From Zootoca vivipara (taxonomy: Eukaryota): DNA of 64,000 bases. The stretch covers positions 40,300,001-40,364,000 of the forward strand of contig NC_083284.1 of the NCBI RefSeq assembly GCF_963506605.1, read 5' to 3'. Under the pieces are notes generated by a model. The model saw only the letters and a program-made list of their open reading frames with translations. It did not search any database and was not told the origin of the DNA. The translations under genes were made by a program, and so were the position numbers. Below are positions 17,991 to 39,532 of this stretch, one piece after another. Position 1 is the stretch's first letter, and every line of letters begins with the position of its first letter.

Positions 17991-18126
17991 CAGGCATGGC
18001 CAAACTTGGCCCTCCAGCTGTTTTGGGACTACAACTCCCATCATCCATAGCTAACAGGACCAGTGGTCAGGGATGATGGGAATTGTAGTCCCAAAACAGA
18101 TGGAGGGCCAAGTTTGGCCATGCCTT
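17991..18126. mobile_element. Palindromic hAT MITE (GGACTACAACTCCCA family)
   Basis: Perfect 8-bp TSD CCCTACAG (17983-17990 / 18127-18134); near-perfect fold-back. Confidence 0.9.
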
Positions 18127-18772: not shown

Positions 18773-20036
18773 TACTGCGTCCAGTTCATGAAGCCACATA
18801 AAAGTAAAGACTTGTGTATGTTACAACACTGAGTTTCCATATAGTTGTTTCTCAGGCAGATCTGGTTATTGTAAATTGTGTGGCATATTTGGCTGTGGAT
18901 CATAATTTTATCGTGTTCGTAGTCTTGACAAAATAATAGGATAAGTTTCTTTTTGTTTTCTTCAGATTGGAAAAAAGCACTACATTTTATACTCACAATG
19001 AAACTAATTCCTTGCAGGTTCCAATTACAGTTGCTTTGATTGCAATCAATGAGATTAGTTACCATAGTTACAACAACTGGCTGTATGGCCTTGTGAGGTC
19101 AAGGCAGCAGTAGAGAAGGTTGATATGATTAGCATCTTACAAAGGTATCAGACTCATTCTCTAACAGAAAAATCTCTGAGGAAGAATTACTCTCTTTGCT
19201 TGCTTTTCTTCTTGTGGAAGCTGGATTTTAAAATTTTAAGGCTGCTCTCTCCCCAAATGAAGTATGTTTTGTTTTGTTTGTTTTGTTTACAAGGTAGAAA
19301 TTCAGGAGGAATATTAGTGTGTACTTTTTTTTCCATTTCTTTTTGGATAAAATCAGGGTTGCTTGGTTTCCATTTCCCAGGGCTGTTTTCATGGTAACTA
19401 AATAAATGTGTTGCTCTTGGATGTTGAGAATCTACGTTCTAATAATAGCTTGGCTCTGGGGATGGTTTTGACCAAAATACTGGACACACCATGTCACCTT
19501 CGCACCAGATGTAATAAGAAAATTCAGGTCAACCTTACAGGGCTGTTGTGTAGATAACAGACATATGACCAACATGGCAAGCTCAAAAGTAAGCTTTATC
19601 AAGGTCAAAGGGGCTTACCCCCAGGCAAGTCAATATAAGATTGCAGCCCAAGGCCACCTAGGCAGGAAATAAATCCCATGGAAGCCAGTGGGACTTAGTT
19701 TTGAGTAAATATATATAGATGGTTTCACAGGGACAGTTTCTACCATCAAGTATGAAGGATATATCAGGAAGAAAGAAATGTCCATGTGGCTTTTATGAGT
19801 TACATTGAACCAAAATGGCTGTCATATAACCAAAAGCAATCTCTAATAAGAGACGTTCAAGGTCTTCTACAGTGCAATGCTATGCATGTCTACTCAGAAG
19901 CTAGCCCTATTGAGTTTGAAGGGGCTGCTTACTAGATAAGGGGGAGTCTTAATGTGATCCATAGATTGCTTAGGATCCTTTGGCCATTTGGGTTCTAATG
20001 ATTACACTGGGGGGGGGTTACCTCTATTCTCTAGAT

Positions 20037-21512
20037 CACGGGTGTCAAACTCAAATTCATCGGGGGCCGCATCAGCAGTTTGGTCACCTTCAAAGGGCCG
20101 ATTGTGTCTGTAGGACTATGTGTCCACTCTTTATTATCATAAGTTATTGTCACTGCATTCAATTATTACTGTTTTTTGTAATAATGTAAGCTCATTCCCG
20201 CCCCCACGCGGATCACATTCCTGCGTCGTGGCGCATGTGTGGGAGGGGATGTAAACGAGGGAAATTTGAACAAAAGGTGGGGATTGACGGCTTCTGGGGA
20301 GGGGGGCTCAACTAAACCTTCGGCAGGAAGGAGAAAGCCACTGCTGGGATTAAAAACCTGCAGATGGAAAGAAGGCTTCCCTCTCCCGCCCTGCGCACAC
20401 CCAAACCCCGCTAGGCAGGATGCCACACGCTGCAACCCACCCCATGCTTTGGAGAGGGGCAGGAACATGCGGTGCAGCGCCAACTCCCTGCTTTGCTTTT
20501 TCATCCTCCCTCCTCAGCGCCAGAGTCCCTTCCCCTCGCGCTGAGGGAGGGCAGCAGATTTCCCAAGGAGGAAGGCGGCAGCAGCCCCAGCGGACGTGCA
20601 TCTTCGCCTCAGAGCTGCTCTTCCCCCCACCCGCGCTGTTGTCGTCTTCGCCGCCGCCTCTCCCTACCGGGACTGCAGGCAGAGGAGGCTTGAAAACCTC
20701 ACCCCCCAAAAAATATTCCCCTCCCACCTACTCAAACCGCGAGGCGACTCCATCTGGAGCCCTACATCACGAGGGGCTGAGAGGAGGCGGCGGCAGAGCG
20801 GGAAGAGCAGGAACCCATGCCATCGTCGCCGCCTCCCTCCCGGCCGCCCCCCGGGGAGCAGCTCCGCCGGAACTGAGAAGCCAAAGGGCGGCTCGGGGGT
20901 GGGGGGCAGAGCAAAAGCCAGGCACCCTCCCGAGGGTCTATGAGGAGAAAACGGGGGAAGAGGGAAGAGAAACCCGGCTCCATCAAGAGAGCGACTGTTG
21001 CGCTTCGCCTACTTCCCCCTCAGGCTCACTCCGCGTCCCTTTCGCCCGCCCGCTCGCCCACCTCCCGGATGCAGCCGAGGAGAGGAAGGGAAGCGGCGGG
21101 CGGCGGCTCCCCAGTGCCGCCTCACTCGCTCTTGGAGACAACAACAAAGCCCGCCAAAAAAAAAATCCAGCGCTGCTCCGTCCTGGCACCAACTTTGCCG
21201 GCGGCGCCTGTAGGGCTTTCCTACCTCCTCGGCGGGCTTCCTCCTCCTCCTCCTGCATCTCACTTCCCCGTCTGGCCGCTGTGCCACCGCCTCCCTCAGC
21301 CTCATTCGAAATTGAAATTCCCTGGCCAAGGCCGTCAGCACGGCTCCAGCGCCCCGGCCTCCGCCTGCAGCCCCGCCCCCGGTTTTGACCCTCGGCCAAT
21401 CGCAGGCTCCAGAACTACTGTCAGTGGTTACTGTCGGTGGCGGCTATGCGGGCCACATGACGAGGTCTGGCGGGCCGGATTAGGCCCCCGGGCCTTGTGT
21501 TTGACACCCATG
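20037..21512. mobile_element. Non-autonomous Charlie-type hAT transposon carrying a captured CpG island (Pack-hAT)
   Basis: Perfect TSD CTCTAGAT (20029-20036 / 21513-21520); TIRs CACGGGTGTCAAAC / GTTTGACACCCATG; subterminal GGGCC motifs; no transposase; interior very GC- and CpG-rich. Confidence 0.88.
20190..21420 (-). promoter_or_regulatory. Captured CpG-island promoter / 5' UTR-exon-like segment of an unidentified gene
   Basis: CCAAT 21396-21400, GC box CCCCGCCCCC 21371-21380, CHR-like TTCGAA 21305-21310, minus-strand donor candidates GAG|GTGGGC (21062) and TAG|GTGGGA (20728), acceptor TTCTTTCCATCTGCAG|G (20357). Confidence 0.55.
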
Positions 21513-22656
21513 CTCTAGATTCATGTCTATGAGTAAAATTGGGATTCTGAGTGGTTAGGGTCAATGCACATGCAATGTTCAAAACAGGGAAGCCATCAAA
21601 AGTGATTCAGGCCTGTCCTAAAATGTGGAACATTGCACACACCCCTATCCTCATGTCAGCAGGAACAGGACTCATGTGTACCAAAGGACACACAACTTGA
21701 TGATGGCAATCTGTGTAGTCAATGGCTCTAAACATTGTGGTCTGGACATAGGTCACTATCCAGAAGGAATTGGGGTCATTGGCACTCACCAGTCATTAGT
21801 GACTGTGAATGTGAAACTGGAAGATATTAGATATGTCTGATCCATTAATGTGGAACACAAGGATGTAGGTGAACCCTAAAATAAGAGTGTCTATTCTGAC
21901 GGCCTCTAGGTAGCAGTACCTCCTAGAGATGGGGGATTGATAGATGCCTTCAGCCCTCATTATCTAAAACTCTAATCACCCATAACTCGAAGCCAAATTC
22001 ACAAATGTGAATCTCATGTAGCAATACACAATGTAACCTTGAGTAAATAAAAACCTCCATTCCTGATAAACCAAATGTTTTGGTTCTCCTCCAGACCACT
22101 TGGACGGATCAAACTGGTAATATTTGTTTCTAGGAAACAAAGGCAGAGGTGGTAAATTACTTCTGACCCTCTGGGGTTTAGAGTGCTATATTGTGGAGAT
22201 CAATCTGTCTCTGGTAACAAACCTAACTTCAAATAAAAGCACACATACTTAGCTCACCATGGAATTCTATCTTGGAACCAAATGCCATGAATCTTCATGG
22301 GAAGATCATAGGACAAAAATGTGGGGAGGGGGGGGATGATCCGTAGGTTTTCATCTGAATGAATGAGGGCTGTGCAAGCTGAAAGCCTTCATAGGAAAAT
22401 GTCCTACTGGATTGTGCTTTGTACTTTCCACACAATCATTTCCAGCCCAATTGGGGGGGGGGAAATATCACCAGAATACACACACACACACACAATGAAT
22501 TGTATCCCTTTGGCCATACATGCCAGAATACAATTCTTGCTTTCCAAATGCCTCCTATTAACACTGAAGCAAAGCATGAACATATTATGGAACAACATCG
22601 GCCGAACATCACAATTCATGCATTTTCTATCCAAGACAAATCAGAAGTATCAGAAA

Positions 22657-23452
22657 TAGGGATGGGCAAATATATGATTTTGGGTTTAAGCTTTTCCCTT
22701 TTCAGTCCTTAAGTTCCGTTTTTCACATTGCACATCAGTTGGTGAGTTATTTATTTTCAAAGACCTCATGAGAATTCACCAGGATTTTGTGTGAATAAAC
22801 ACAATTTTAATTGCAGCTGTGCCTAATATACACATTTTTGCAATTTCCCCTAATATCAAACATTCTAAACGCTTCCCCCCCCCAAATACATGCATTTTCA
22901 TTCTTACTTCACCCTGATATTTGCATTATAGTACACGTTACTCTGGGACGCAGGTGGCGCTGTGGGTTAAACCACAGAGCCTAGGGCTTGCCGATCAGAA
23001 GGTCAGCGGTTCGAATCCCTGCGATGGGGTGAGCTCCCATTGCTCAGTCCCTGCTCCTGCCAACCTAGCAGTTTGAAAGCACCTCAAAGTGCAAGTAGAT
23101 AAATAGGTACCGCTCCAAGCAGGAAGGTAAACGGCGTTTCCGTGTGCTGTTCTGGTTTGCCAGAAGTGGCTTTGTCATGCTGGCCACATGACCTGAAAGC
23201 TGTACATCAGCTCTCTCGGCCAATAATGCGAGATGAGCGCCGCAACCCCAGAGTCGGTCACGACTGGACCTAATGGTCAGGGGTCCTTTTACCTTTACAC
23301 GTTACTCAATTGGAGAACTGCATTGCAAAATTTAGAAAAGTGTGAATTTTGAATGATGGCCATGTTTTTGTTTGTTTGTTGTTTTGGAAAGTGCAAATTA
23401 GGTAATTTTGGCTTCTAAAGGTGAGCGGAATCAAATTTCCGCTCCGTTCCCA
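22657..23452 (+). mobile_element. AT-rich hAT-like element, copy 3, with nested Sauria SINE
   Basis: TAGGGATGGG start; degenerate 8-bp TSD ATCAGAAA / ATCACAAG. Confidence 0.7.
22945..23295 (+). mobile_element. Full-length Sauria SINE
   Basis: GGGACGCAGGTGGCGCTGTGGGTTAAACC (A box), GGTTCGAATCCC (B box), (ACCTTT) tail; 12-bp TSD TACACGTTACTC (22932-22943 / 23296-23307). Confidence 0.95.
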
Positions 23453-26400
23453 ATCACAAGTGCATTTTTTAATGAAAAAGAAAGCAAGATGGTACTGCAC
23501 CGTCTGAGGGGAGCGCACTCTAAATTGGAAACGTATGGCAAATATGGGGGGTGGGGTGGAGAAAGGCAGAGTTCTTACAATGATAGAAAGTAAGAATATG
23601 AAAAACGTAATGCCTGAAAAAGTAAAAATATCATGCATGACAAGAAGGGAATGCCCAAATGAGTGCTTTTTCCACTTCTCCAATCTTTGTTGTTGTTGGG
23701 AGAATTCTGGACGATAAGATTATCTACATGTTGACAGACGTGTTTATTTGCTTCTGGCAAAAAAAAAAATCCCACCACATATTACTCTCAGCATTTTCTA
23801 ATTTTAAGAGATGGAAAGGCCATGCTCTCCCATTGCCAGAAGGTATTACTCTCACATCCCTTTCACTCAGACAGTATATCTTGGTTATTAACCTGAATGA
23901 TGTACTATAGTTTATAGCAGGATAACTGGACAGATAACTGGTGACTTGTTTTTCTATTCATACATCATTTGTCTGCTTGCTTCTAAGAATACAATGGTCA
24001 CAATCCTCACATGAATCAGAGCTAACAGCCCACTCTGCAACCCCTTCTCTGTAGCCCACCACTGCACATACTTTTGTCTTCTTGGAAAAGAGAGTTAATG
24101 AAAAAAACGTGTTATTGGTTTCTCTCCATCCCTTGTTTGCTGTCACTGGATTTAGAGCCAGCTAAATTTGCAGTTAGGTAGAGAAGAAGATATGGATTTG
24201 CAGAAGCTATGTGTGTCAGCCTGTGGGGCATCACTGCTACGCAAAGTGAGGCAGCTATCTCAGGAGGTGGGCAACAAGGAGAAGTGCAGTCGTGATGGAA
24301 GACAGAGTTGTGTGTGCCATTCAGCCTGCCCATCACCCACTAAGATAGCCTGCTGTCCTTAGTTACAGTGGAGGATACTGACCTGTCACCAATGTAGAAG
24401 TTAAATTCACCTGCAGTCCAGTCAGCTTCTAGAGCTATTTCACTGGAGGACAGTTTATCTGCAAGACCTTTAGATGGCAGATTTGCTAGAGTTCCTTTTA
24501 AAGATAGGTGTTTCCCTTGTCCCCATTTGGGGTTAGAAACCGTAAACTATGCATTCTTTTCCTATAGTGATTACCACCAGGGGGCTGGGGGAATGCATAA
24601 TCCAACCTCTTATGCGATTGCGTAACAGCAGGGTTGCGGAACTGGTGGTCCTTCTTGCATTTCTGGGTTTCCACTCCCATCAACTTCACTCAGCATAGCC
24701 AATAGTCAGGGGTGATATATATTTTTTAATGCAGAACAGGTGACAAATTTGTAAAATGTTATATTTCTAACATTTCAAACACATGTTTTGATTGCCAGTG
24801 CTTTGTCTGTCACCCTTTTTAATCAGTTTTATTGATAGGCTGTGTTTTGTAGATAGTGCAATAGATTGGTTGACTATTATATGCATGCTCGGTTAGCTAT
24901 TTGTAATAAAATAGACGCCTTACAAAAGGCTTGGAGATAAATCTTTACTTGTCAGGTTGGCAACAGCCAAACAAGAAGAATTATTCATATATACCGTATA
25001 TTTATGAATAAAATACATTTCTCTCCCTTGAGCTCAAGAGAGGGTTTAGTCCTTTTTGTTTTCAAAACTCCTTTACAACAGTAAAAAGGTATTAATCCAT
25101 AGCTTGCCTGTCCTCACAAACTCCTCCGCAAAGCGTCTGCTTGAAGTCACAACACTCCCACATTCTCAGTCAAGGAATCAACTAACAGAATAACCAACCA
25201 GTTGCCAACTGCCACCTTCTTCCCTCAATACTATTTATTCTTTGTGAAATACATTTACAATGCAAGTACAATATAAATACTAACAGCTCCTACTACTTCG
25301 AGCTGCAGGACGGGAGATCTGTCTCCCCCCGCCCCCACATTTCAGTGCACATACAAAATTGGCATGTTAGGCTAGGCTGGAAATCTCGTGCCTAACAAGC
25401 ATGGGTTGAACTTTAACACTGCTGACCACTCAGCTTCTCTAAGGTTGCATTCAAATAAATGGTTTGAGGACTGCAGCCACCGTAAGTTCCTGCCTTGATC
25501 CCAGCGGCTAATTACCTCTTGCATTTTGTGGGATCCAATTCAATATCTTCAATGCATCATTAGACAAGAACCCCATGATATTTAACAGGAATAACTGCTG
25601 ATGCTGCTACTATTACTTTGTTTAGGGGAAACAGTGGACTAAACAATGTTTTTTTAAGTATGTTCGTTTTCTGGAATGTCTCTTGTGTTTGTGTAAACAG
25701 ACCCCCTAGACAGGTAAAGCTCTGATTGCTCCATGTCTACCTGTAACTCAGCATTCAAACTTTTTAAAACGTGTGCTTAATTATTTGAATCACTGCAAAG
25801 TGCTTGGATTCTTCTCATAAACACACTGTTGTATTCTGCCTAATATATAAACACCACGACCCATGTCTGAGAATGTTGGGAATTTTATTAGCCCCATAAA
25901 GTTTCTGTTGAAGTCTAGTGCCGTAAGTCCAAAATAAATAATACAGAGAAACCATTAGAAACAATTATTTACCCTATTCTCCCTTCTCCTTCTTTCTCTA
26001 CATCCACCAAACCAGTAACTCTCCAAATAAACTTTGCCACTGTGGTTACTGAGGTCATTTATGTTTGCTATCTCAGTATTCTGTAAGCAAATGAGCCAGA
26101 GATTCAGAGCAAATCTGACGGAAATGAGTAAAGATGGGGGAAAGTGAGCACTTACCTTTTTGAATGCCTAAAAAATGACACTTTCATTTTCTTGAGATGC
26201 AAAAGTATTTGAATACAATTGACTGGCCCACAGCTAACAGGCAGGTGACTATGCAACAATACATTCTATATTCCAAGCTTTCCCTGATCCATAAGATTGG
26301 GCCTTGTCTTACACGACTGAATTTCTGCTTTATTCACTTTTATGCGTTTTTACATGGCTGTCTTACTGGTCTTAGGTTGTATTTTTGTTTCAGTGTTTTA

Positions 26401-26536
26401 AACATACATTACTTGCTTTTAGACCGTACGGCAACTTAAAGAGTGGGGATGATTTCATTTGGTGGCTTGCGCTGACAGAGGTATCAGAAGAGAGTGTCAC
26501 TGAATTCCTCCCACAATGTTTGAATGGGCTTGTAGT

Positions 26537-26740
26537 CAGTGACGTGGCAACGGGGGGGGCAGGGGGTGGTGTGACTCATGTGCCATGACTGGGGGGGTGT
26601 GACAAGAAGGCACCCCGTGGTGGCTCGCCTGACGCAGCGGCACAAGCAGCCATCGTGCCGCCGCAGTCGCATGTGGAGGATCCTCCGTTTGTGGCTGCAG
26701 CCACGAGCAGAGGATCCCGGCACAGTCCGTATAGCACTGG
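26537..26740. mobile_element. GC-rich hAT-like MITE with internal palindromes
   Basis: CAGTG...CACTG ends; 40-bp imperfect palindrome at 26678-26717; no clear TSD. Confidence 0.45.
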
Positions 26741-27845
26741 AGTGCCACCCAGGATTTATGTCAAGCTGGAATAGAAATAATGGCTCAGAACAGCCACAAA
26801 GAAAGCCATTTGAACTATTATCAGTTTAATAATTGCAGCCCCAGAGCCAGGAGATGTTCCAATGAATTTGCAGTTAAAGACAATAATTGAAGTATTTTTT
26901 TTCAAAGAAGGCAGTGAACAAGAGGAATAGGTACTTATTTGTGTAATGCAATCATTCCGTATTCAATGTTTTTGGAAAATAATTTCTGGAATGCAGTAAT
27001 TGGCAGTGCTACATGTTAGCAGATCCCATTCTTAATCTGCCATAAAGCTCCCAGTTCATGCTGGGTAAGTGTAATTGTGTGACTTCCTCTTATCATGAAT
27101 GAACTTCAAAAGAAGATAAAGATCTTTAAAGCATTTGGGAGACCATACTCGATAAGTCTCTCAGCCCCAATTACCTACCTTGGGAGGATTTATAAATAAT
27201 GCAAAGGGCCTTTGTTCTGGGAAGAAATAATTTGAGAAAAACTCTTTTGTGTTCCTTGTTCTCATTGGTCTTAAGATACTTTTTTATGGTGTAGCTCTAT
27301 ATTTAAACATTTAAGGCCTCCTTTTCTTTTGCCAAAATATAAATACGGCTTACTGTAAATGAGGCTCAGCTTTTCTTCTTATCCGCAGCCAGGGAGATTG
27401 CAGAGGATGCATTGGAAACATATGATGACCTTGAAGGCCATAACTAATTTGCATAGTGTGGATACACATAATTGGCATACTTGGCATATCAGTTGCTCAC
27501 ATTTTATTGGGGAGGAACCAAGACCCAAGAGGTGTGGCCCATATTCAGAGACACCTTAACTGGCCTATGTTGGGAAAGAACTTAAACCAGCCTCTCAAAA
27601 CTAATACGGACATCGAGAGATGAAAAGATGGCCATTCTCTCTAAGAGCAAACTCTGAGTGCCAACAGATTGGAAAGCAAAACAGGGCGAGTAAGAAACAA
27701 GGCGATCTCAACATGTCTGGGTGAACCTTGAGATAGACAGAAGTACAAAACAAATCCATCCTAGTGATGATTAAGCATGCTCAGTTGTTTCCAGGAGTGA
27801 CAGAATATTATGTGCCAGTTGGCAAAGTCAACTGAGTAACTAAAG

Positions 27846-28288
27846 CAGGGTTGGGGAAGCTGTGGGCGAGGTGTGCTAACTCTTAGGGGTGGAGGTGTCT
27901 TCGGCCCTCTCAAAATCTGTTGGCATGGGGCCAGGCCCCCTCAACACTGAGGGGTCAGAGGTTGATCACTGAGCTGAGAGTGGTGCAGTTCAGTGGCCGG
28001 CTCCTCCTGAGTGTGAGAAAGGAAACTGTGCCACACTGGTCTCTGTGCTTGGCCTCCTGATGATGTGACATCACACATACGCTGCATGCCGGGCATCTAA
28101 CACCACACACACACACAGTGAATGGTGGGTGGCACTCCTCAATCTTGGGTGCAAGACAGCCCCTCTGCTGGAGGCATCCAGATGTTGGTGGACTCTAGCA
28201 TAACCAATGGTCAGGGGAAGATGGGAGTAATACAAGAAGAAAGATGGGAAGATGGGAGTAATACCAGGCCCCAGATTTCCCACCCCTG
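27846..28288. mobile_element. Decayed palindromic hAT MITE split by a second hAT-like insertion (~27868-28168)
   Basis: CAGGGTTGGGGAA...TTCCCACCCCTG outer ends; degenerate TSD CTGTGGGC / CTGGAGGC around the insert. Confidence 0.4.
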
Positions 28289-29618
28289 CTGTAGAGACAC
28301 TCAACCTTTAGGGATTTAATGCGACCATTTGTTCCTCGAACTAGTGTTTTCATTCTTCATCTCAAAGTTCAGTAGACCTTTTATCTCAGCACATAAACAT
28401 TATTTTAAAACCAATATTTTACAGAGTTGGAAAACTATGACCTTCTCATCAATGATGCCCTCATGAAGGAAGCCAACAACTTTTGTAGCATTATTTCTCT
28501 CTCTCATACAATAGCTATCGTGTACTCTTAAAAAAGCCGTTAAATGGAAAATTGTATTTCTTGCATAGAAAGAGCCAGAACTCAAACTGGCTTTCATCTT
28601 AATTAATCAACAGCCTGATTCACATCCCCACTTAAAAGAAAGCACTTAAGATTTATATAATTCCATTAACTCCAGTTGACTCTTGTATTTGGCTGTAAAT
28701 CTGTACGGGGTTTTACAGTTTATTAATCAAACCCTCTCTTCTGCTGACTGAAATACTTCAACCTGGGGAGATAATAATCCTTGTACGTCCAATTGTAACA
28801 AATTTATTGTTACATAAGCTTCCCTGGACTAGTGCCCGCTTCATATAGTGGTTAACGGATACAAAGTCCTCACTGGTAATTTAAATCAAAAGGTGACATT
28901 AACAGTGCAATTGAATACTTAGATTCAATGTGGCTTACTTTCGAGGAAGTGTGCACTTAACTGCAGCCTAAGTGTCCTCTCTTGCCTCCTGACGAAGCAA
29001 TCTCTCCCCCCCTCCCGCCCTTGTGCTGGGCAGAGGTGTCTCCCAAGTAGACCTACAGGCCTCCTTCAGCCTCCCACTGGCAGACGCATCATTACTCCAC
29101 TGGTGCAGAGCCCCTGCTTCTTTCCACCAAATGGAAGATGAAGCTTTCTCGAGTGGGGTTGGCGCAAGCTGACCCAGGATCCATTGTATCCTGAGCTAGC
29201 TCTGTTGCCGCTATGTGATGGCAACAGGCTTGATCCAGGTCCAATCACAGCACCACCATTAAGCTGGCACAGCAATCTACCTCCACTTCCCACATGTTGC
29301 AGGTATAGGAATGACCCTGCTTCTCTATAATTTCCCTTTGGACTGAGAGGGAGGTAGCTAGGATTGCTCACTTAGTCTTCCTGTTCCTGCCTTTCTATAC
29401 CTTTATTGCTCTTTCCTCACCCAAAATACACACATGCATTTCCTCCACCACTACCTCATCACCAGGCTTCCTCTGCTTCACTTTTCTTAGGCTTCTGGCT
29501 CTTCTCTGTTTTCTGATATTCTCTTGCTGTTCTCCCTTTCTTAAAGCTCACATCCTCTTCATCTTCCTTGCTCTGCTACCACCCATTTGATACCAGCGGT
29601 GCTCAGGTGACCCTAGTG

Positions 29619-29754
29619 CAGGCTTCCTCAGCCTCGGCCCTCCAGATGTTTTGAGACTACAATTCCCATCATCCCTGACCACTGGTCCTGCTAGCTAGGG
29701 ATCATAGGAGTTGTAGGCCAAAAACATCTGGAGGACCAAGTTTGAGGAAGCCTG
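29619..29754. mobile_element. Palindromic hAT MITE (GACTACAATTCCCA family)
   Basis: CAGGCTTCCTCA...TGAGGAAGCCTG; homologous to 17991-18126 and 36254-36389. Confidence 0.85.
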
Positions 29755-30146
29755 CAATGGTGTCTGTGTGATGTTACTCTCATAGGCAAGCTGACCTTTC
29801 ACTTTCCCTCCAAAAACGCAATAAAATTTTGCTGAGATTCTGTGTTCCACCACAGTTAATATTTATGAGCATTTCATACCATTATAGAAGTGTCCAACCA
29901 ATTACATAGATACAAAATGGCTGGGAGAGTTCTAATTCAGGCATGCAAATGGATGTTTGTATAAGATTTTGTCTTCATAGACCTATTTTAAGTGTATCAA
30001 GGAGGCCTTGAATAAGCATAATAATACATATTTGTATGCTGGGGAGGGGAACAGATGGAAAAATCTGAAATAATCAGAAACATATGGAGTTGGATTATTT
30101 ATTTATGGTCATTTTTTAATATTGCCTTTCCTTATATCCCCGGGGC

Positions 30147-30292
30147 NNNNNNNNNNNNNNNNNNNNNNNNNNNNNNNNNNNNNNNNNNNNNNNNNNNNNN
30201 NNNNNNNNNNNNNNNNNNNNNNNNNNNNNNNNNNNNNNNNNNNNNNNNNNNNNNNNNNNNNNNNNNNNNNNNNNNNNNNNNNNNNNNNNNNN
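30147..30292. other. Assembly gap (N run)
   Basis: 146 N. Confidence 1.
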
Positions 30293-30329
30293 ATCACAGA
30301 AGTAACATAAAACAGAAAGATTAATATCG

Positions 30330-30495
30330 TATCCCAAACTTGAGAAGATAAAAGGTAGATGCCAGGTGAAACTTTCTGGGAAGAGTTTTCAATCATTAGG
30401 GCCCCACTCCTTGAAGACCCTCTCTCTAGCAAGCAGCTGCCTCAGCTTAATTGTTGGGGCACCCATAGGAGGCCCTTCCCTGTAGGGCTTAATGT
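30330..30495 (-). mobile_element. Old L2 3' fragment
   Basis: Reverse strand resembles the L2 C-terminal 'R.F...P..WN.LP..' region. Confidence 0.35.
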
Positions 30496-31154
30496 ACAAT
30501 GAGTCAGACATGGTAACCCTTGTCTGCACTAAGCACCGAAAGCAGTATTATGCCACTTTAAACAGGCCTAGCTTCCCCCAAAGGATCCTAGGCGCTGTCA
30601 TTTGTAAGGAACTGAGAGTTGTTAGGGGACCCCAAGTCCCCTCAGAGAGCTACAATTCCCAGAGCTCCCTGGGAAGATGGACTGATTGTTAAACGTCTCT
30701 GAGAACTGTAGCTCCCTGAGGTGAGCTGGAGAAAAACATAGGTCAAATATATGTTGCCTATGCTTTTCCATTCCCACACAGTGTGAACTAAACACACAAC
30801 TGTCAACAGAATAACTTTTCTTTTAAGGGAATCATAGGACACTGGTTATGGGGGGGGGGTCATTTACGATGGCCAAACCTTATTCCAAACTGTTCAGAAA
30901 GTGTATGTAATTTGAGTGTAATCTCAAATGAAAGGTCCACTTTGGGAATACTTCTTTTTATGCAAAGGTCCGAGTTATGATCCCTGCAAATGCAGCTGTC
31001 AACATTCTACAAATCTGTGGGGGGAAATAACAATTTGTGATGATGTTCTGTTCTGGGTCTTGGGAGATGTGGTTACATTTTTGTGATCCACAGACATTTC
31101 TTGTGTCTCACAGAGTTTTTACATGACCTAAGGCAAATTGTTTAGATTCTTAAA

Positions 31155-31318
31155 AAAGGTAAAGGGACCCCTGACCATTAGGTCCAGTCGTGACCGACTC
31201 TGGGGTTGCGGTGCTCATCTCACGTTATTGGCCGAGGGAGCGCCGTTTACCTTCCCGCCGGAGCGATACCTATTTATCTACTTTGACGTGCTTTCAAACT
31301 GCTAGGTTGGCAGGAGCT
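31155..31318 (-). mobile_element. Sauria SINE, 5'-truncated and internally deleted
   Basis: AAAGGTAAAGGGACCCCTGACCATTAGGTCCAGTCGTGACCGACTCTGGGGTTGCGG, reverse of the 3' end of 22945-23295. Confidence 0.9.
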
Positions 31319-33515
31319 CGTGTTCTTAGGGAGTTGCAATTAGCACGTCCCACTTTTTGAGTTATAGGCTACAGCTTTGTGACATATAAAAACATAGGAA
31401 GTTGTCTAGACACTGACTGGCAGTGGCTTTTGGAATTTTGGAGAGAAACTTAGAGAAGCTAGAGAATGAAGCTGGTACTTTCTGGAGCCAAATAATGTGT
31501 TATGTCACTGTATTCCCTCCTCGCTTGAGGTGCACTGAGCTTCTTCAAATGGCTCACCAAATCGTTGTCTCTATCCCTCCTTTGCTATCGCTCTCCTGCA
31601 TCTTTTCACTTTATTACACTGCTCCTGATGGTTACTGGAAACCTGAATGCCATGCTTCTCAAAAAAACATGCTATTCGAGGTCTAGGGTGGCATCTCAAG
31701 TGATATGTGTTGAGTCATCTGACTATTAGGTAAATAACTGACCTATAGGTTGCAACACCAGAGATACTATGTGACCGCAGGTGTAAATCTGACAGCTACA
31801 GGCAGTAATTACTCTCATTAATTCATTCACCTCAGTTTTATGGTTCCTGGATGTATAACATACCTATAAACCGAGGTGCTGGGCACCCACTTGAAACCAA
31901 GCCTTGAACCTAGTGCAGACAGCATAAGAATAAATAATACAAGTGCCCGTAACATGAAATAAATGTAGTTTAACTTTGATGAAGATTGAAAGGTTGGCTC
32001 TGTATCACAGAGTAATTTTTCGCTTCCTTCCAGTACCAGGCTGGAATGTGTATACAGAGTTTTTACTATGACGTATGAGTTGATTAGCCTTGACAGAAGA
32101 ACATGTTTAATTACTGAAGAGGCTTTTTAATTGTGGTTTGTGGGCAGCTTTTGTGTTTTGGGAGGTAAGTCGTAAGTTGTAGATGAGATGGTCCTGGACG
32201 AGAGAGGCACTAGCTCTGAATGAGAACTGGACTACATATATAAACAGGACTAGTTGCTGGCAAAAGTATTACTGGCTTTATAAAAATAGCAGATGTGGAG
32301 GGAAAGGGTGCCAAGACGACTAACACAATCTCAGCGGGAAGCCGTTGGCATGTAAATGTTAATGACCCAACAAGGCACCATGAAGGAAGACGTTTGCTAG
32401 AAATCCAAAAATGTGGATGAAGTTGCCGAGATTAACATTCCCAGGGGAAGGAAGGGGGAGGAGAATACCTAATAAATACATGTAATGTGAGCACTGCAGT
32501 GTTTAAGCCTTAAAATGTTTGGCGAAGGAAATTAGAATTTATAAGTCATTAAACTAAAGATAAATCCAGGAGTTGAATAATTCTGCCAGAGTACTGGAGT
32601 AAGTAGAAAGAGGGGGGGAACTGGGCAGCAGCACACAACAAAAGTGCTGCTGTCAGATTTGATGGCTTGGAGCTCATATTTATTTGTTTGGATTTATTGA
32701 TATTTCCATCCTACCTTGAAAGCACAGGTTAGGCTGCAACATTTAATCCTGCGTACATGACCAGATTAAATTGAAGCAATGATTTACTTCTGAAGGGCAT
32801 CATTTGATATTAGTTAGAAACAGAACCCTGTGATGGGCTCGGAGGGAAATTGGAATGGGGAATTACTGGAATCTGGTGGTGCTTCCTTTCCGTTCCAGAG
32901 AGCCCTGGTGCTGAGTCAGATCTCACAGGACATGCATAATATCACCATCCTGCAAGAGATTATGCATGTGCAAGAGAGCCTGGGTGGATTCTGGAAACCG
33001 TTCTAGAGGTTCTGTGGAACTATGGGCAAAAAAATCAAGTCCTGCCAAACCATTTCTGGAGCGGTTGATATGAATGTAGGTTGGCGGATGCTGTGGCTTT
33101 GGTCTCCTAAACGCCATTTATAACAGGGTTGGGGAAGCGGTTTCCCCCCCTTGTTGTTGCACTCCAACTCTCCTCAGCCCATCCAGCAAATCCCATGGGC
33201 AGGAATTATCAGAGTTGTAGTCCAGCAACATCTGGGGGAACACACATTCCCTGCTGATTTATAATTCCCAATGGTAATGCATTCATTTTTAAAATGCAAA
33301 AAAGATTTCATAATCCACAATACTTTTTTTTAAATGGAAAAAGTTGCACCATTAAGAATAACAAATTCTAGAAAAAGGAAACATGACTTTCTACTACCAG
33401 CATTGAAAATATGGAGCTTTTAAGATTCAAAACAAGACTCTACCAAGTAAGAAAAATAAAAATCAGGATAGGAGCACATAAGGAGGCACCGTTGTCACTT
33501 TGGGTTTCCATCTTA

Positions 33516-33793
33516 CAGTGGTACCTCTAGTTGCAGACTTAATCCATTTCGGGGTGCCGTTTGCACCCCGAAAAGTCCACAACTAGAACACCTCTTCCGC
33601 GCATGTGCGTGGCGCGATCGAGTGCTTCTGTGCATGCGCAAAGTGCGCAGATTGCTTTTGTGCATGTGCGAAGCACACAGATCGCTTCTGCGCATTCATG
33701 TGTGGTGAACCCGGAAGTAAACACTTCCGGCTTTGCCGCGTTTGTAAGCTGAAAGTCCGTAACAAGAGTGGAATGCAACTAGAGGTACCAATG
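33516..33793. mobile_element. Tc1/mariner (Tigger-like) MITE with NRF1-like and ETS motif repeats
   Basis: TA|CAGTGGTACCTCTAGTTGCA...TGCAACTAGAGGTACCAATG|TA; repeated GCTTCTG(C/T)GCATG(C/T)GC units; CCGGAAGTAAACACTTCCGG. Confidence 0.85.
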
Positions 33794-34155
33794 TACTTTG
33801 AAAGTATAGGCTAGGTCAAGGGTCACCAGCCTGACCATGGTGCCCACCAGGGTGTTCTTGGATGCCCTCACGATAAACCATTCTCCTCAGGTTTCCAGGT
33901 TTCAATAAAACCCAAAGTAAGTTTCTAGCATTTTCAGAACCTAGGAGGCAAAATGTACATACACCATGTACATTATAAATTAGCCTGCTCCACACCTTTC
34001 AGTGGTTTACTCTGTCTCTCCAGAAGCCTCCCCCACCCCACCACCCAGGAATCTTGCAAACACCCATGTGTGAGAGGGAAAATACACTTGGGAGAAAAAT
34101 GGGGAAAGAGCTATGTGTGGTCTGTGTGTGAGAGGGAGATATGCATTTGGCAGGA

Positions 34156-34287
34156 NNNNNNNNNNNNNNNNNNNNNNNNNNNNNNNNNNNNNNNNNNNNN
34201 NNNNNNNNNNNNNNNNNNNNNNNNNNNNNNNNNNNNNNNNNNNNNNNNNNNNNNNNNNNNNNNNNNNNNNNNNNNNNNNNNNNNNNN
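34156..34287. other. Assembly gap (N run)
   Basis: 132 N. Confidence 1.
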
Positions 34288-34950
34288 TATATTTTTTCAT
34301 GTTACTAGGGAATGCTCCATGTTGTTGGTGTGCGTTGTTATGTGTGCATGGAATTAATATTGTGTGATCTCCACCATCAAAGCCAGCAGGATATAGCTAG
34401 CTACCCAAGGTAAGCCTGAAGTTGCCCAGGGCACGGAGAAGAAACCATGTACTCTTTTGTATTCTACATATCCTGTCTTGCAGTCTTTGTGTACTTTGAC
34501 ATGCTGCCATGGCAGCCATTTTGTGACTGATGTCTCAAAACTTAACACGTGCCCTGGTCCAAAAAGATTACCGACCCCTGAGCGAAAGTAATGCAATGTG
34601 TCATGGAGGATATAATTGTCAATGACTATGAGCCATATTCACTCAATAGAACCTCAGAGTGCAGGCTGTTGGTGTGATCGTATGTGTGGAAGTGTCCAAA
34701 TGTAAGGGAAGGGTTGTTGCCTTCATGCATTACTTATGTGCTTCCTAAAAACATCTACATCCCAGCGCTTTGTCTAATTAAGCAACCTATGGCTTTTTAA
34801 ACTGCATATGGGAGGTATTGTTGTGCATTTTTGTGTTGTAATCTGTGTTCCTCGGATGAAGGTTGGGATGGAAATTCAATAAATAGATAAATAAATAAAA
34901 ATACTTGGACGCAGTTCGATACCAGATGCTGGATTTACTCTTGGTCCGAT

Positions 34951-35215
34951 CATAAGAACATAACACGAGTTCTGTCAGATCAGACCAAAGGTCTATCTGG
35001 CTCAGCATCTTGTCCTCACAGCAGCTAACTAGATCCATGGGAAGCCTGCAAACTGTACACTCTCCTCCCTTGCGATACCCAGTGATGGGTCTACAGAGGT
35101 GTATTGCCTCTGATAGTGGAGGTAGAACATAACCTTCATGGCTATTAAACTACCCACCTCCATTTTGTTTCATCTTCTTTTAAAGCCACCCAGGTTCGAG
35201 GCCATCACTAACATG
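34951..35215 (-). mobile_element. CR1 LINE 3' end
   Basis: CATAAGAACATAA tail, then GATCAGACCAAAGGTCTATCT...CAGCATCTTGTCCTCACAG, the antisense CR1 3' UTR. Confidence 0.65.
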
Positions 35216-35406
35216 AATGGGATTAAAAGAGGATTAGACAAATTCACAGAGTAATAAGGCTAGCAATGGGTGCTAGCCGTGGTAGCTCTGTTCTACACTG
35301 TTTGGGGTGGGGTGCACCCTACAAGGCTGTTACTTATCATTGCCAGCCACCATGAGTTCAATCCATCTTATCATTGCCAGAGTTCGTTCAATCCATCATT
35401 TGCATT

Positions 35407-35462
35407 CAGTGGCGGAGCTCGGGGCGGCTCGCCCCTACCACCCCTATCTTCCTACACCCCTG
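35407..35462. mobile_element. Minimal 56-bp hAT MITE
   Basis: Perfect TSD TTTGCATT (35399-35406 / 35463-35470); CAGTGGCGGAG...CTACACCCCTG ends. Confidence 0.7.
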
Positions 35463-36253
35463 TTTGCATTATCTATATTTGAGACAGTTAATCAGTCAAT
35501 TAAAAGTGATCTTCCAAATGTCCAGCTTTTGCAACATCAGCAGCAGAAAAGAAAAGAGGATTAAATTTTGACTCTAAAGACTTCTTTGTTTTTTAAAACT
35601 CCCAACTGCTTCTCTACTGGTTTTGCTTTACTGGCATCCTTCTGTAGTCTGCCCATGTGGTCCCCCCCCTTGCCTTTCTAGGTGTTGCAATTGCTTTGTA
35701 ATTTCCTCTTCAAGATATGGGGAGTGGTAGTGGTGCCAGAAGGAAGTTTGTGGAATCATTGAAATCCAAAAAGTCTATTAAAAACACGACTTGGCCTTTT
35801 CTAGATGTAGGAGAAATTGCCAACAGCCATTTGCAGAACTAGAAATAAATGTTGGACATTAATCTTGGAAAGATATTATTCTACATGACTAGGATATGCT
35901 GCAGGATATATAGCTGGTATTCCTTCTGCAGTGACAGCTGGCTCTTTCGTCAGTTATTCCCCTTTCATTTCGGGAACCATTGAGAACTAAATTACATTTC
36001 TGCTGAAACTGAAACTCTTTCACTGACTAACCAAATATTTCTTTTTTGACTCTCCTAATTTATCATCTGAAAACATTTTTGAAAAGAGATTCAACTGAAT
36101 TATTGATCTGACAAAGAAGTGTATGGTCACAAAGCTCAGTTTGATAGAGCCTCCAACCAGAATAGCTTTGTTTGTCTCCAGCTATTGCAAAGTTTAAAAA
36201 TTTCCAAGAATAATAATTATAAATTATCCTGTAAAGATGAATACAATCTAGGT

Positions 36254-36389
36254 CAGGCATCCCCAAACTTCGGCCCTCCAGATATTTTGGACTACAATTC
36301 CCATCTTCCCTGACCACTGGTCCTGCTAGCTAGGAATCATGGGAGTTGTAGGCCAAAACATCTGGAGGGCCGCAGTTTGGGGATGCCTG
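36254..36389. mobile_element. Palindromic hAT MITE (GACTACAATTCCCA family)
   Basis: CAGGCATCCCCAAACT...AGTTTGGGGATGCCTG; TSD ATCTAGGT / ACCTAGGT. Confidence 0.9.
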
Positions 36390-36409
36390 ACCTAGGTGAT
36401 ATTCATATA

Positions 36410-36661
36410 CAGTGGTGCCTCGACTTACGAAGGTGCCTTTGGAACGGATTAAATTCGTAAGTCGAAAACGGCATTGGAAACGCAATTTCCCATAGGAATG
36501 CATTGGAAACGAAAAAATTCGTAAGTTGAAGCAACCCTATCTAAAACCGCCACATTCCCCCCCCCCCGGATGACGAGACATTCGTAAGCGCGTGGCCATT
36601 ACCCCCATTCGTAAATCGAAAAATTCGGTTGTCAAGTCGTTCGTAAGTTGAGGTACCACTG
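36410..36661 (-). mobile_element. Tc1/mariner (Tigger-like) MITE, same family as 7009-7251
   Basis: TA|CAGTGGTGCCTCGACTTACGAA...TTCGTAAGTTGAGGTACCACTG|TA; GAAGCAACCCTATCTAAAA is the reverse of 7123-7140. Confidence 0.85.
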
Positions 36662-36725
36662 TACAGATTTACATTTTGCTTTAATTTTCCAGAGGGAGAC
36701 TTGATTTCCTGTTCTATTCTAAGTA

Positions 36726-36952
36726 CAGTGGTACCTCAGGTTACAGACACTTCAGGTTACAGGTGCTTCAGGTTACAGACTCCGCTAACCCAGAAATAGT
36801 ACCTCGGGTTAAGAACTTTGCTTCAGGATGAGAACAGAAATCGTGCGGTGGTGCGGCGGCAGCGGGAGGCCCCATTAGTTAAAGTGGTACCTCAGGTTAA
36901 GAAGAGTTTCAGGTTAACAACAGACCTCCGGAACGAATTAAGTTCTTAACTG
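36726..36952. mobile_element. Tc1/mariner (Tigger-like) MITE, right TIR partly deleted
   Basis: TA|CAGTGGTACCTCAGGTTA; internal TCAGGTTA repeats; ends TTCTTAACTG|TA. Confidence 0.75.
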
Positions 36953-38110
36953 TATAAAGCTGCCCAAAATAAGTGGACTTTACTCCCAGGGAAGTGTGCT
37001 ATAATTTGTAGGTATGAGGCAGATTACAGACCATGCCACATTTTTCAGTGTCCCTTGCTGATTTGTAATCCTCGCCTGTGTTCTAGCTAATGTTAGTCCT
37101 ATTCAAAGTAGACCTATTGAAATTAATGGACGTAACTTAGTCACGCCTCATCATTTCAGTGGGCCTACTCTGAGACTAATCTTGGATGCAACCCAGAACA
37201 TCATTTTCTGATTTTTATTATATTATTAATGCCCATGTCTTTAAAAAGAGAGAAGTACATAATTAACTCCCCCACTGTTATAGTTGGGTTGGTCCTGTTG
37301 GAATTTGAATTTTATTGCAGGCCAGAAAAACCTAATGAGTTAGAAATGGAACCAAGGCAAAAAGGTGCTTTGATATCATTCACCCAGTAAAGTGGCTGTT
37401 CTGTAGACAAAAATGTATTGCTGAACCAAATATTGTTGGCAGGTTTTCTTTCTCCCTGACCTCAGCGCTTTAATTTTCAACTCGGAATCTGCACATGTTC
37501 TTATTATGCTTTTTGCATTTACTGTTGCAACATGTACATTGTAGGACAAGGGCTTGTTAACCATAAGCATCTCTCCGGTTGGCAGGCAGCCTGCAGCAGC
37601 ACTTCTCACAGATGTTTCTGCTTTACAGATCAATACAAGAAGAGCTCTTGCCTTGTCCAGGATGGAAACAAATGCCAGCACGGCGTTCCAGTGACAACTA
37701 CTATGACACAAGGAGGTTGATCAGAATGCCATGCTTTATTGTCACCTCCACCAATGAAAAATAAAGTGATATTAAAAGAGACATGTTTTAATTATCCATC
37801 TAGAGTTGATGAGACTTGGCAAGACTCCTGTCTTTTTGAAACAGAGGGGGACTACCTTTTTTTGTGGGCCACATACCAGTGATGGGTGAAGCCAAAAGCA
37901 AAAACGGGCAAGATGCAATTCTTACCTTTGTGCAGCAAGCTACATTCAGTGGATGCTGGTGCCCATTCAACCTGGCAGAAGGGCAGGACGCCAACAGTAG
38001 CAGGGGCAGAGCAAATGCCTGGGAGAATAGAACCAATATTAGCAAGAGCAGAGCTATTTTTCTAGAAAAAGAGGTGCCGGAACCAGTGCTTTTTGGGGTG
38101 GGGTGGGGAG

Positions 38111-38616
38111 AAGGACAGATGCTAGGGTTTTTTGCACCCTAGGCGAGATAACCTTCTGCCCCCCCCTGGGCCTGGCCCAGCCTTCACCCCCTTCCCTTCC
38201 CAGTGCCCCTCCGGCTTACCTGGGACGTCAACGGCTCGGTTGCTCTGGCCGCCCTCAGGCTCAGCCACGGACCCCCGGGCGCAACAGCAGCTGCTCCTGC
38301 CTGCCCGAGAAGTAGAGCATGGTGACCGCGCCCGGAGCCGAAGGCCCGGCTCTGGCGCGCGCACCACGGGAAGGGGCTGCTCTCGCCCTACGTGTCCTCC
38401 ACACGCTGCTGCCCTCGGCGCTCCAGGCATGCCTGGGCTGCACCAGCGCCGCTGCTGCCGCCTGCCCTGGATGCGGGTAGGTGGCGTCGGGATGCAGCGG
38501 CCGCACGGCAGAGCGAGTCCTGTGAAGCCAGCAGCGCTCCCCATCATGCCAGCGCCCCCTCCATTTTGGCAGCCTAGGCAACTGCCTAGTTTGTCTTAAT
38601 GGACACGCCAGCCCTG
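38111..38616. mobile_element. hAT-like element (CAGGGCCGG-type), innermost layer, carrying a captured pappalysin exon fragment
   Basis: Right end CCTAGGCAACTGCCTAG...ACGCCAGCCCTG; degenerate left end AAGGACAGATGCTAGGGTTTTTTGCACCCTAGGCG; TSD not recognisable. Confidence 0.6.
38220..38545 (-). pseudogene. PAPPA2: Transposon-captured, frameshifted fragment of a pappalysin (PAPPA2-like) first coding exon
   Basis: Minus strand reads WRTRR-ARAAPSRGARARAGPSAPGAVTM-LYFSGRQEQLLLRPGV, then after a deletion/frameshift PEGGQSNRAVDVP-G|GTAAGC. Human PAPPA2 as recalled: ILYFSGRRERLLLRPEV...WVKPEGGQNNPAIIAG; PAPPA: ALYFSGRGEQLRLR...WLRAEGGQRSPAVITG. Upper boundary is approximate. Confidence 0.8.
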
Positions 38617-39123
38617 GTACCGACACCTCTTTTTGTTGTTGTTAAAAAGTGTGGTGAGTACTGGCACCTATTTTATTAGAAAAAAGGCACTGGCCAAAAC
38701 TCTCCATGACTGCCTCTCTTGTTCTCTTATAATGCTAATGGCGCCCACCCGAGAGGTGCCAGAACTGAGTTCTGACCAGTTCCTGCTGAAAAAAGCACTG
38801 AGCAAGAGCCAACTAATTTTGGTTTTGCTCTCATCCTCCTTCCTGTTGAATTCTACAAAGGCAACACTAAGACTAAGGAGGAGGAAGCTGACAGCCAGAT
38901 GCTACCCCCCCCCCTGGGTTGGATATAAGGAAGGAGGTATCTTAGTTGCACTAGCCTCTGCTGGATACATAGCTGCCATGCAAAAGCCAGAGGTTTCTAG
39001 ACACCCATCTTTCATCCAGACAAGCAAGAGGCATCAGCGTATTTGAAGGACACATTTCAACATGGGAGTAGGGAATTAGGACATGACAAGCAGCCTTTCC
39101 CCTAGTCTTGTACAAAGATACTG

Positions 39124-39532
39124 CATACCTGCCAAGTCTCCTACTGAAAAATGCAGGATCAGCAGCGACGCAGCACCGGAAGTTGCGTAGAAGCAGCTTC
39201 CGGGGCCGCTCTACCCATGTGTGGGCACCAGAAATAGGGCAGAGCGGCACCGGAAGTCACTTCTATGCCATCTTGGTGACGGCCACATGGCGGCGGCCAT
39301 CTTGGTGATGGCTGCTGCCATATGGCCGCCGGGCATGCGTAGAAGTGACTTCCGGTGCCGCTCTGATCTATTTCCGGTGCCCACACATGGGCAGAGGAGC
39401 ACCCAAAATGAAGGCTCCCTGGCAGGTAGGAAATCCGGGGGATTTCTGGGATTTTTCTCCATTCGGGAGAACAGCGGGAAACTGATTAAAATCCGGGGTT
39501 TCCCATGAAAAACGGGATACTTGGCAGCTAAG
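39124..39532. mobile_element. hAT MITE with a 52-bp internal inverted repeat rich in ETS/YY1 motifs
   Basis: CATACCTGCCAAGT...ACTTGGCAGCTAAG ends; degenerate TSD AGATACTG / GATTACTG; arms at 39214-39265 and 39340-39391. Confidence 0.8.

Follow-up and report, generated by a model that had tools for sequence, protein, structure and literature searches.

How does DNA with the composition of a CpG island come to lie between the ends of small DNA transposons? The question is raised by a 64,000-nucleotide stretch of the genome of the lizard Zootoca vivipara (contig NC_083284.1, positions 40,300,001 to 40,364,000; G000:C9:40300001-40364000 in our numbering; hereafter the window), which carries two hAT-type elements with GC-rich interiors against a baseline GC content of 0.43 and a CpG observed/expected ratio (o/e) of 0.28. 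Very probably, both are non-autonomous hAT copies, each with an interior that derives from one CpG island, at a gene start or close to it, and that was likely gained by template switching and then spread by cut-and-paste transposition, and the same has happened at least six further times in this genome. The original prediction for the window had proposed two independent island captures within 19 kb. Both cargos were indeed copied from single-locus CpG islands, but each of the two elements is merely one copy of a dispersed family.

Element 1 (20037-21512; Table 1) is just as the original prediction described it. Its 14-bp terminal inverted repeats differ by one mismatch, its interior has a GC content of 0.64 and a CpG o/e of 0.70, and an exact 8-bp target duplication brackets the window copy. 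An interior 24-mer has 290 exact matches in the genome and is present in 25 of 30 known copies, from which we estimate a family of ~350 copies; a first look with the interior gave 423 candidates, and the 40 that were scored are 94-100% identical. Exact 8-bp duplications, different at each site, accompany 25 of 30 copies. Relative to the family majority, 30 copies differ by 0.9% outside CpGs and by 5.6% at CpG positions; because these are the 30 copies closest to the window copy, the resulting age estimate is a lower bound. The ends of element 1 also enclose other DNA. The first 24 bases of the left end have 1,632 exact matches, and among the first 30 such left ends on contig C1, five hold the element 1 cargo, one (L091) holds another island, and most of the remainder share one different common interior. 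Across these different interiors, roughly the first 154 bp and the last 65-75 bp are kept. The linker between cargo and right end (21425-21447) is unusually variable between copies and shows short repeat expansions, and at least three element 1 copies stand in tandem at ~2.25-kb spacing at G000:C11:12.89 Mb (L021 and L023).

The donor of element 1 was sought by requiring the left cargo edge without element DNA following it. Two loci matched, one an element copy and the other C3:56662631, which lacks element ends; from the right junction, all 45 of 45 matches were element copies. The C3 locus is a CpG island that reaches beyond both cargo edges and aligns, in order, to element 1 positions 156-185, 796-884 and 1009-1388. 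Two segments of the cargo lie between these blocks, and for the longer one, of 610 bp, exclusion searches of the assembly returned element copies only (7 of 7 and 23 of 23). To judge from its sequence, cargo block 3 is likely a non-coding first exon together with GC-box-like upstream DNA. It contains a splice-donor-like GT at 21224-21223, and the GTAAG donor of the island reads GTAGG in 28 of 30 element copies. A gene with FERM exons has its first coding exon ~27 kb downstream of the island, and its best matches in the PDB are members of the protein 4.1 family. The N-terminal exon of this gene gave no PDB match; the N-terminus suggests that the gene may be EPB41L2. By position, we infer that the C3 island belongs to this 4.1-family gene. 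Just outside the captured span, RNA reads on the opposite strand (L136:9019-9352) suggest divergent transcription from the island.

Element 2 (~38112-38616) ends at 38616 in an intact right terminal repeat. The window copy has a damaged left start at ~38112 and no target duplication, and no matching left terminal repeat is found on the + strand of the window; the left end of the family is known from other copies. The end at 38800 given in the original prediction is that of a host miniature inverted-repeat transposable element (MITE), inside which element 2 lies, and ends related to those of this MITE are present at other loci. The cargo of element 2 carries a 37-bp deletion at 38269/38270, between short direct repeats, that shifts the reading frame. 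A pattern bridging the suspected deletion has exactly one match in the genome, at G000:C7:4507694. This locus is a CpG island with a coding frame that, among PDB entries, matches pappalysin-2 best (E 6e-17), and an M43 peptidase exon follows downstream. The family majority differs from this PAPPA2 donor at 9 of 385 bases and has ~92% of the parent length, and the divergence of individual copies from this majority is 3.7% outside CpGs and 20% at CpG positions. The deletion junction has 63 exact matches in the genome, and 21 of 30 known copies contain it, which puts the family at ~90 copies; the splice donor is retained in 25 of 30.

Are these two cases isolated? Donor searches covered 12 interior types, all GC-rich, and found donors for eight, every one of them a CpG island at or near a gene start. 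This bears out the proposals that cargo-bearing hATs are common, with many independent captures, and that non-autonomous hATs take up CpG-island DNA. Most of these donors came from elements with element-2 ends. Exact matches to the left end of element 2 number 707 in the genome; the first 30 consecutive ones on C1, a sample defined by that end and nothing else, form 11 clusters by interior (14, 4, 2, 2 and 2 elements and six singles, two of the singles without a right end). An exact 8-bp duplication flanks 18 of the 30, or 20 when one mismatch is allowed. Seven interior types were searched, leaving out the cluster of 14 and one pair, and five of them, amounting to 9 of 30 elements, yielded donors. 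PAPPA2 cargo accounts for four elements. Two carry the promoter, exon 1 and donor site of AP2A2 (AP-2 alpha-2; 20 of 20 residues match), a capture with ~17 copies genome-wide. The 5' region of SOS1, in ~five copies, lies in reverse orientation, its splice donor missing from most of them; the promoter and exon 1 of MALT1 occur in one copy; and the fifth donor is an unnamed first-exon island at C6:71791846. Between element-1 ends, L091 carries, with a 601-bp deletion, cargo from an unnamed island at C2:50310614 and has ~six copies; 62 open frames at that island gave no Pfam match above the cut-off.

The original prediction had confined the phenomenon to hAT elements, and this restriction does not hold. 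In a random sample, a Tc1/mariner-type element present in 16 copies (96-100% identity) was found to hold DNA from intron 1 of the island at C12:31472789. The short exon there has no PDB match, and the gene is presumably a paraoxonase. At L149:7098-8604 (G000:C4:40027098-40028604), a Tc1/mariner-type element 1.5 kb long contains island DNA and further GC-rich pieces common to related elements; its copies on several chromosomes are 100% identical, so it is likely still mobile or was so very recently.

How far do such captures account for the GC-rich hAT elements of this genome? We scanned 750 kb in 15 arbitrary blocks for element structure and obtained 84 hits against none in shuffled DNA, the 84 including pairs of short interspersed elements and palindromes. 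Seven are hAT-type elements with exact duplications and an interior GC of at least 0.63, which scales to ~13,000 GC-rich elements per genome, not proven captures; the one of the seven searched for a donor gave none. Most GC-rich hAT interiors could instead be made by transposons themselves, through expanded subterminal repeats, palindromes and pieces of other mobile elements, with gene captures a modest minority, and this we regard as a real possibility, though short of an even chance. Several interiors are tandem or palindromic (L085, for example), no source other than hAT elements was found for one 771-bp family of the random sample, and some pieces are common to families with different ends. 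Mapped host islands are nonetheless present between element-2 ends in at least 9 of 30 elements and between element-1 ends in at least 6 of 30, and transposon-made interiors would limit the scale of the system without removing it.

Two side observations concern such interiors. In the 771-bp hAT family (L192:1930-2700, with longer and shorter variants including L256-L267), the GC-rich interior starts in a promoter-like manner and has two splice-donor-like sites; we presume that it may be a retroelement 5' region. Another GC-rich hAT-type element, whose ends are of a third kind, lies in an intron of the 4.1-family gene (L126:6900-8500, G000:C3), and cargo exchange between families is suggested because its interior is mostly common to L077, which has an element-1 left end.

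The captured spans have a GC content of 0.57-0.79 and a CpG o/e of 0.82-1.09, whereas only 2.2% of the 750 kb of arbitrary DNA is island-like. This excess need not lie in the capture step: capture could be unbiased, with islands dominating only because cargo rich in GC is amplified more readily or noticed more easily. As the searches were confined to GC-rich interiors, they were poorly placed to reveal AT-rich donors. Next to their islands, the AP2A2 and MALT1 cargos extend into AT-richer DNA. Published cases point the same way: anole hobo elements absorb ordinary genomic DNA in which pieces of old transposons abound (PMC3014272), and 5' cargo reaches higher copy number in bat Helitrons (PMC4224331). 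Against this, the element-2 sample was chosen by left end alone, and low-copy cases are islands as well (MALT1 with one copy, SOS1 with ~five, the C2 island with ~six). We think it rather unlikely that capture is wholly unbiased. The island bias likely arises in two ways, inseparable here, in that open, GC-rich DNA would be captured more easily and its products would amplify better.

The anatomy of the captures speaks to their mechanism. The terminal repeats of both families are short (~10-14 bp) and begin with YARNG (motif as given in PMC3014272), and in the sampled elements the internal sequence between the two ends of one element falls within the 100-5,000 bp set for Pack-TIRs (see below). 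In each capture both ends are kept and the interior is replaced, only 55-155 bp of each parent end remaining. The PAPPA2 and C3 islands are each a single donor match without flanking transposon ends. Short shared or duplicated bases stand at the junctions, as read by eye, and the cargos show deletions, short duplications and composite interiors. Template switching during gap repair, as originally proposed, fits this anatomy. A break inside an element or at an excision site would open repair; the repair polymerase could then switch to an open, unmethylated island through 2-4 bases of microhomology, slip there to leave deletions and short duplications, and return to the element. Transposase supplied in trans would spread the island-bearing product, and most inserted copies would become methylated and decay, mostly inert with occasional transcription. 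As to possible sources of transposase, 74 hAT dimerisation-domain matches were found, some in frames of 600-770 amino acids.

Two other routes fare worse. The original prediction had offered flanking insertions near promoters as a second mode of capture. On such a route, two elements inserted on both sides of a promoter would move together, or transposition would bypass an end. In rice, Mutator-like elements (MULEs) do land in open chromatin close to the 5' ends of genes (PMC5861414), but no transposon ends stand at 7 of 7 displayed donor boundaries, the short retained parent ends do not suit this route, and island-like flanks are not favoured: they accompany 6 of 29 and 5 of 29 copies, against 37 of 285 random stretches. 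This route is improbable, and the copies show no clear preference for islands as landing sites. Gain of cargo through RNA, with host exons spliced into an element transcript, is scarcely credible and already contradicted for the cases mapped in this genome: the PAPPA2, AP2A2 and C2 cargos extend past the splice donor into the intron and were therefore copied from DNA, not from spliced RNA, the C12 cargo is intron only, and SOS1 is reversed with its donor missing from most copies.

Several observations weigh against capture by template switching from single gene-start islands as we propose it. For element 1, 734 bp of the cargo are missing from the C3 island, and 30 of 445 aligned bases differ between the two, although the copies are only 0.9% apart. 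Only 3 of these 30 differences are CpG transitions in the cargo, which makes a long-methylated founder an unlikely fit, as more CpG loss would then be expected. The mismatch may reflect a donor allele of another lineage, a deletion that the donor underwent later, or inaccurate copying. The assignment of the C3 island to the 4.1-family gene goes no further than position because another island (L127) lies nearer to that gene and the RNA reads contain no splice joint. No autonomous partner with matching ends was found in 30 transposase loci with 1.5-kb flanks on each side. No donor was found for 4 of the 12 interior types (the 26537 family, the 771-bp family, L286 and L274); in three of these cases the result covers 40 scored candidates out of 133-533 and the inspection of 5-11 loci, and in the remaining one an exclusion search returned only further element copies. 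Moreover, the commonest interiors (14 of 30 with element-2 ends and most of the 30 with element-1 ends) were left out of the searches; these contain internal palindromes along with repeats that are A-rich or made of purines, and are perhaps not host islands.

A more far-reaching version of template-switch capture is speculative, and we hold it doubtful: promoter cargo would keep the founding copy open and mobile, thousands of GC-rich MITEs would be stolen gene starts, and element 1 may carry an island of another lizard lineage, received by horizontal transfer or introgression. Its island is perhaps foreign because the difference between cargo and donor exceeds the age of the family and is not CpG decay.

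After insertion, CpGs are lost about six times faster than other bases in the element copies. This decay, seen in both families, indicates that most copies are likely methylated in the germ line. One of two raw RNA runs yielded 16 reads, with 8 starts, that bear element-1 sequence; none contains a splice joint, and they give no evidence of initiation. Most copies are likely silenced, and any dispersal of working promoters or splice donors, like any effect on genes, is putative. What the system offers is a vertebrate genome with many amplified island-derived families in which parents, copies and ages are all readable. Three questions can be tested in it. Does the GC bias towards 5' ends, seen in plant Pack-MULEs and in bat Helitrons, stem from capture or from amplification? 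Does a CpG island stay unmethylated once moved, which the CpG decay suggests is mostly not so? And do silenced copies, in their hundreds, act in trans on the parent gene? There are also practical consequences. De novo repeat libraries would likely absorb the cargo and so mask the real first exons of PAPPA2, AP2A2, SOS1 and MALT1, and cargo copies would inflate maps of CpG islands or methylation or cause mis-mapping in them.

This kind of capture is already known from the Pack-TIRs of animals (TIR, terminal inverted repeat), which have been described as rare and mostly single-copy; apparently new are the copy numbers and the bias towards gene starts, the latter measured on GC-rich types only. 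Tan et al. (2021, PMC8277862) reported 370 animal Pack-TIRs, 208 of them hAT and only four multicopy (4 of 281), most lying near the parent, with an exonic excess of 13.4% (3.2-fold). One, Pack-hAT-N8_XT of Xenopus tropicalis, carries the 5' untranslated region of CAPSL in three copies. The anole has no Pack-TIRs in that account and no hATs in the annotation used, the lizard row reading 0 and 0. Like Pack-TIRs, the lizard elements hold host DNA between hAT or Tc1/mariner ends, with distinct target duplications and an element-free parent locus; microhomology at the breakpoints, described by Tan et al., may have a counterpart here in the short overlaps or small duplications seen by eye. Transcription or chimeric RNA is also reported for Pack-TIRs. 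Unlike them, the lizard families reach ~90 and ~350 copies on many chromosomes, and all eight donors are CpG islands. Amplified families would probably escape that pipeline, since it requires a unique best hit. The majority sequence of the element 2 family falls within the filter used there for young Pack-TIRs (at least 90% identity, 80-120% of parent length), and element 2 agrees with the Pack-TIR definition in the respects compared. Element 1 works like a Pack-TIR but falls outside the identity and length filter, its cargo being 2.5 times the donor span with 30 of 445 bases different.

Other gene-capturing transposons share some of these features. Bat Helitrons such as HelibatN3 with NUBPL carry promoters and first exons to thousands of copies (Thomas et al. 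2014, PMC4224331) and resemble the lizard families: both are DNA transposons of vertebrates, biased towards the 5' parts of genes, that have amplified promoter and first-exon cargo. The bat elements are rolling-circle elements without terminal repeats or 8-bp duplications, unlike the cut-and-paste hAT and Tc1/mariner elements found here, and a gene-capturing Helitron is ruled out by the presence of both terminal inverted repeats and the 8-bp duplication. Rice Pack-MULEs (PMC5861414) are likewise non-autonomous terminal-repeat elements that favour GC-rich gene pieces, sometimes from several loci; they are Mutator elements with long terminal repeats that insert near gene 5' ends, whereas the lizard copies have no clear island preference. 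Repeats of ~10-14 bp and 8-bp duplications, in place of long repeats and a 9-11-bp duplication (PMC8277862, PMC5861414), rule out a Pack-MULE. Similar in anatomy to the lizard elements are hobo_AC and the orphan hAT-N families of Anolis (Novick et al. 2010, PMC3014272), with common ends, unrelated interiors, intake of genomic DNA and recombination. The Charlie-type 8-bp target pattern of Anolis hATs matches element 1, and the ends of hAT-N6 to N8 resemble those of element 2. The cargo there is transposon-containing genomic DNA, and the portions of that paper we drew on name no capture of a gene or CpG island. A literature search found no report of island-biased gene capture by lizard hATs; Repbase and Dfam entries lay outside this search, as did most subscription papers.

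Table 1. Features of the two cargo-bearing elements and of other hAT-like sequences in the window (L123 is the locus of the C3 island; a point marks features without strand).
Feature	Position	Strand	Remarks
Left 8-bp target-site duplication, element 1	20029-20036	.	identical to 21513-21520
Element 1 left end (terminal repeat and subterminal DNA)	20037-20190	+	also in sister elements with other interiors
Cargo block 1	20192-20221	-	30/30 bases identical to L123 1509-1538, island G000:C3:56662639
GC-rich 610-bp cargo segment	20222-20831	.	not in donor island
Cargo block 2, C3 island	20832-20920	-	85% identity to L123 1538-1630
124-bp cargo segment	20921-21044	.	not in donor island
Cargo block 3, C3 island	21045-21424	-	86% identity to L123 1631-1993
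Short variable linker and element 1 right end	21425-21512	+	last 65-75 bp common to sister elements
Right target-site duplication, element 1	21513-21520	.	pairs with 20029-20036
Truncated left part of older hAT-type MITE	26537-26749	+	other copies with both ends
Decayed hAT-like ends around CpG-poor interior	27846-28288	.	ends read from sequence
Host hAT-type MITE holding element 2, 752 bp	38049-38800	.	exact 8-bp duplication 38041-38048 / 38801-38808
Element 2, copy of 532-bp hAT family	38112-38616	+	left terminal repeat damaged
PAPPA2 cargo: 3' part of first coding exon, splice donor, ~50 bp of intron	38170-38549	-	GT at 38219-38218

Two further GC-rich stretches of the window had been suggested as older captures, and neither bears this out. 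The first (26537-26740) belongs to an ordinary, here truncated hAT MITE; its family gave 533 first-look candidates, and among the 40 scored, which are 75-84% identical, there was no donor. The second (27868-28168) has a CpG o/e of 0.17 and is not island-like; it had no match among the loci compared, no genome-wide search having been made. The palindromic GC-rich MITE at 39080-39520 (CpG o/e 0.70) belongs to another common family, with no capture evident. Three stretches (17991-18126, 29620-29755 and 36254-36389) are copies of a very abundant 136-bp hAT MITE, the size of which is shared by ~25 of the 84 hits of the random scan. The random blocks also contain two young copies of a long-terminal-repeat-type retroelement, ~98% identical, at G000:C11:40.036-40.040 Mb (L210-L211) and C1:20.049 Mb (L146).

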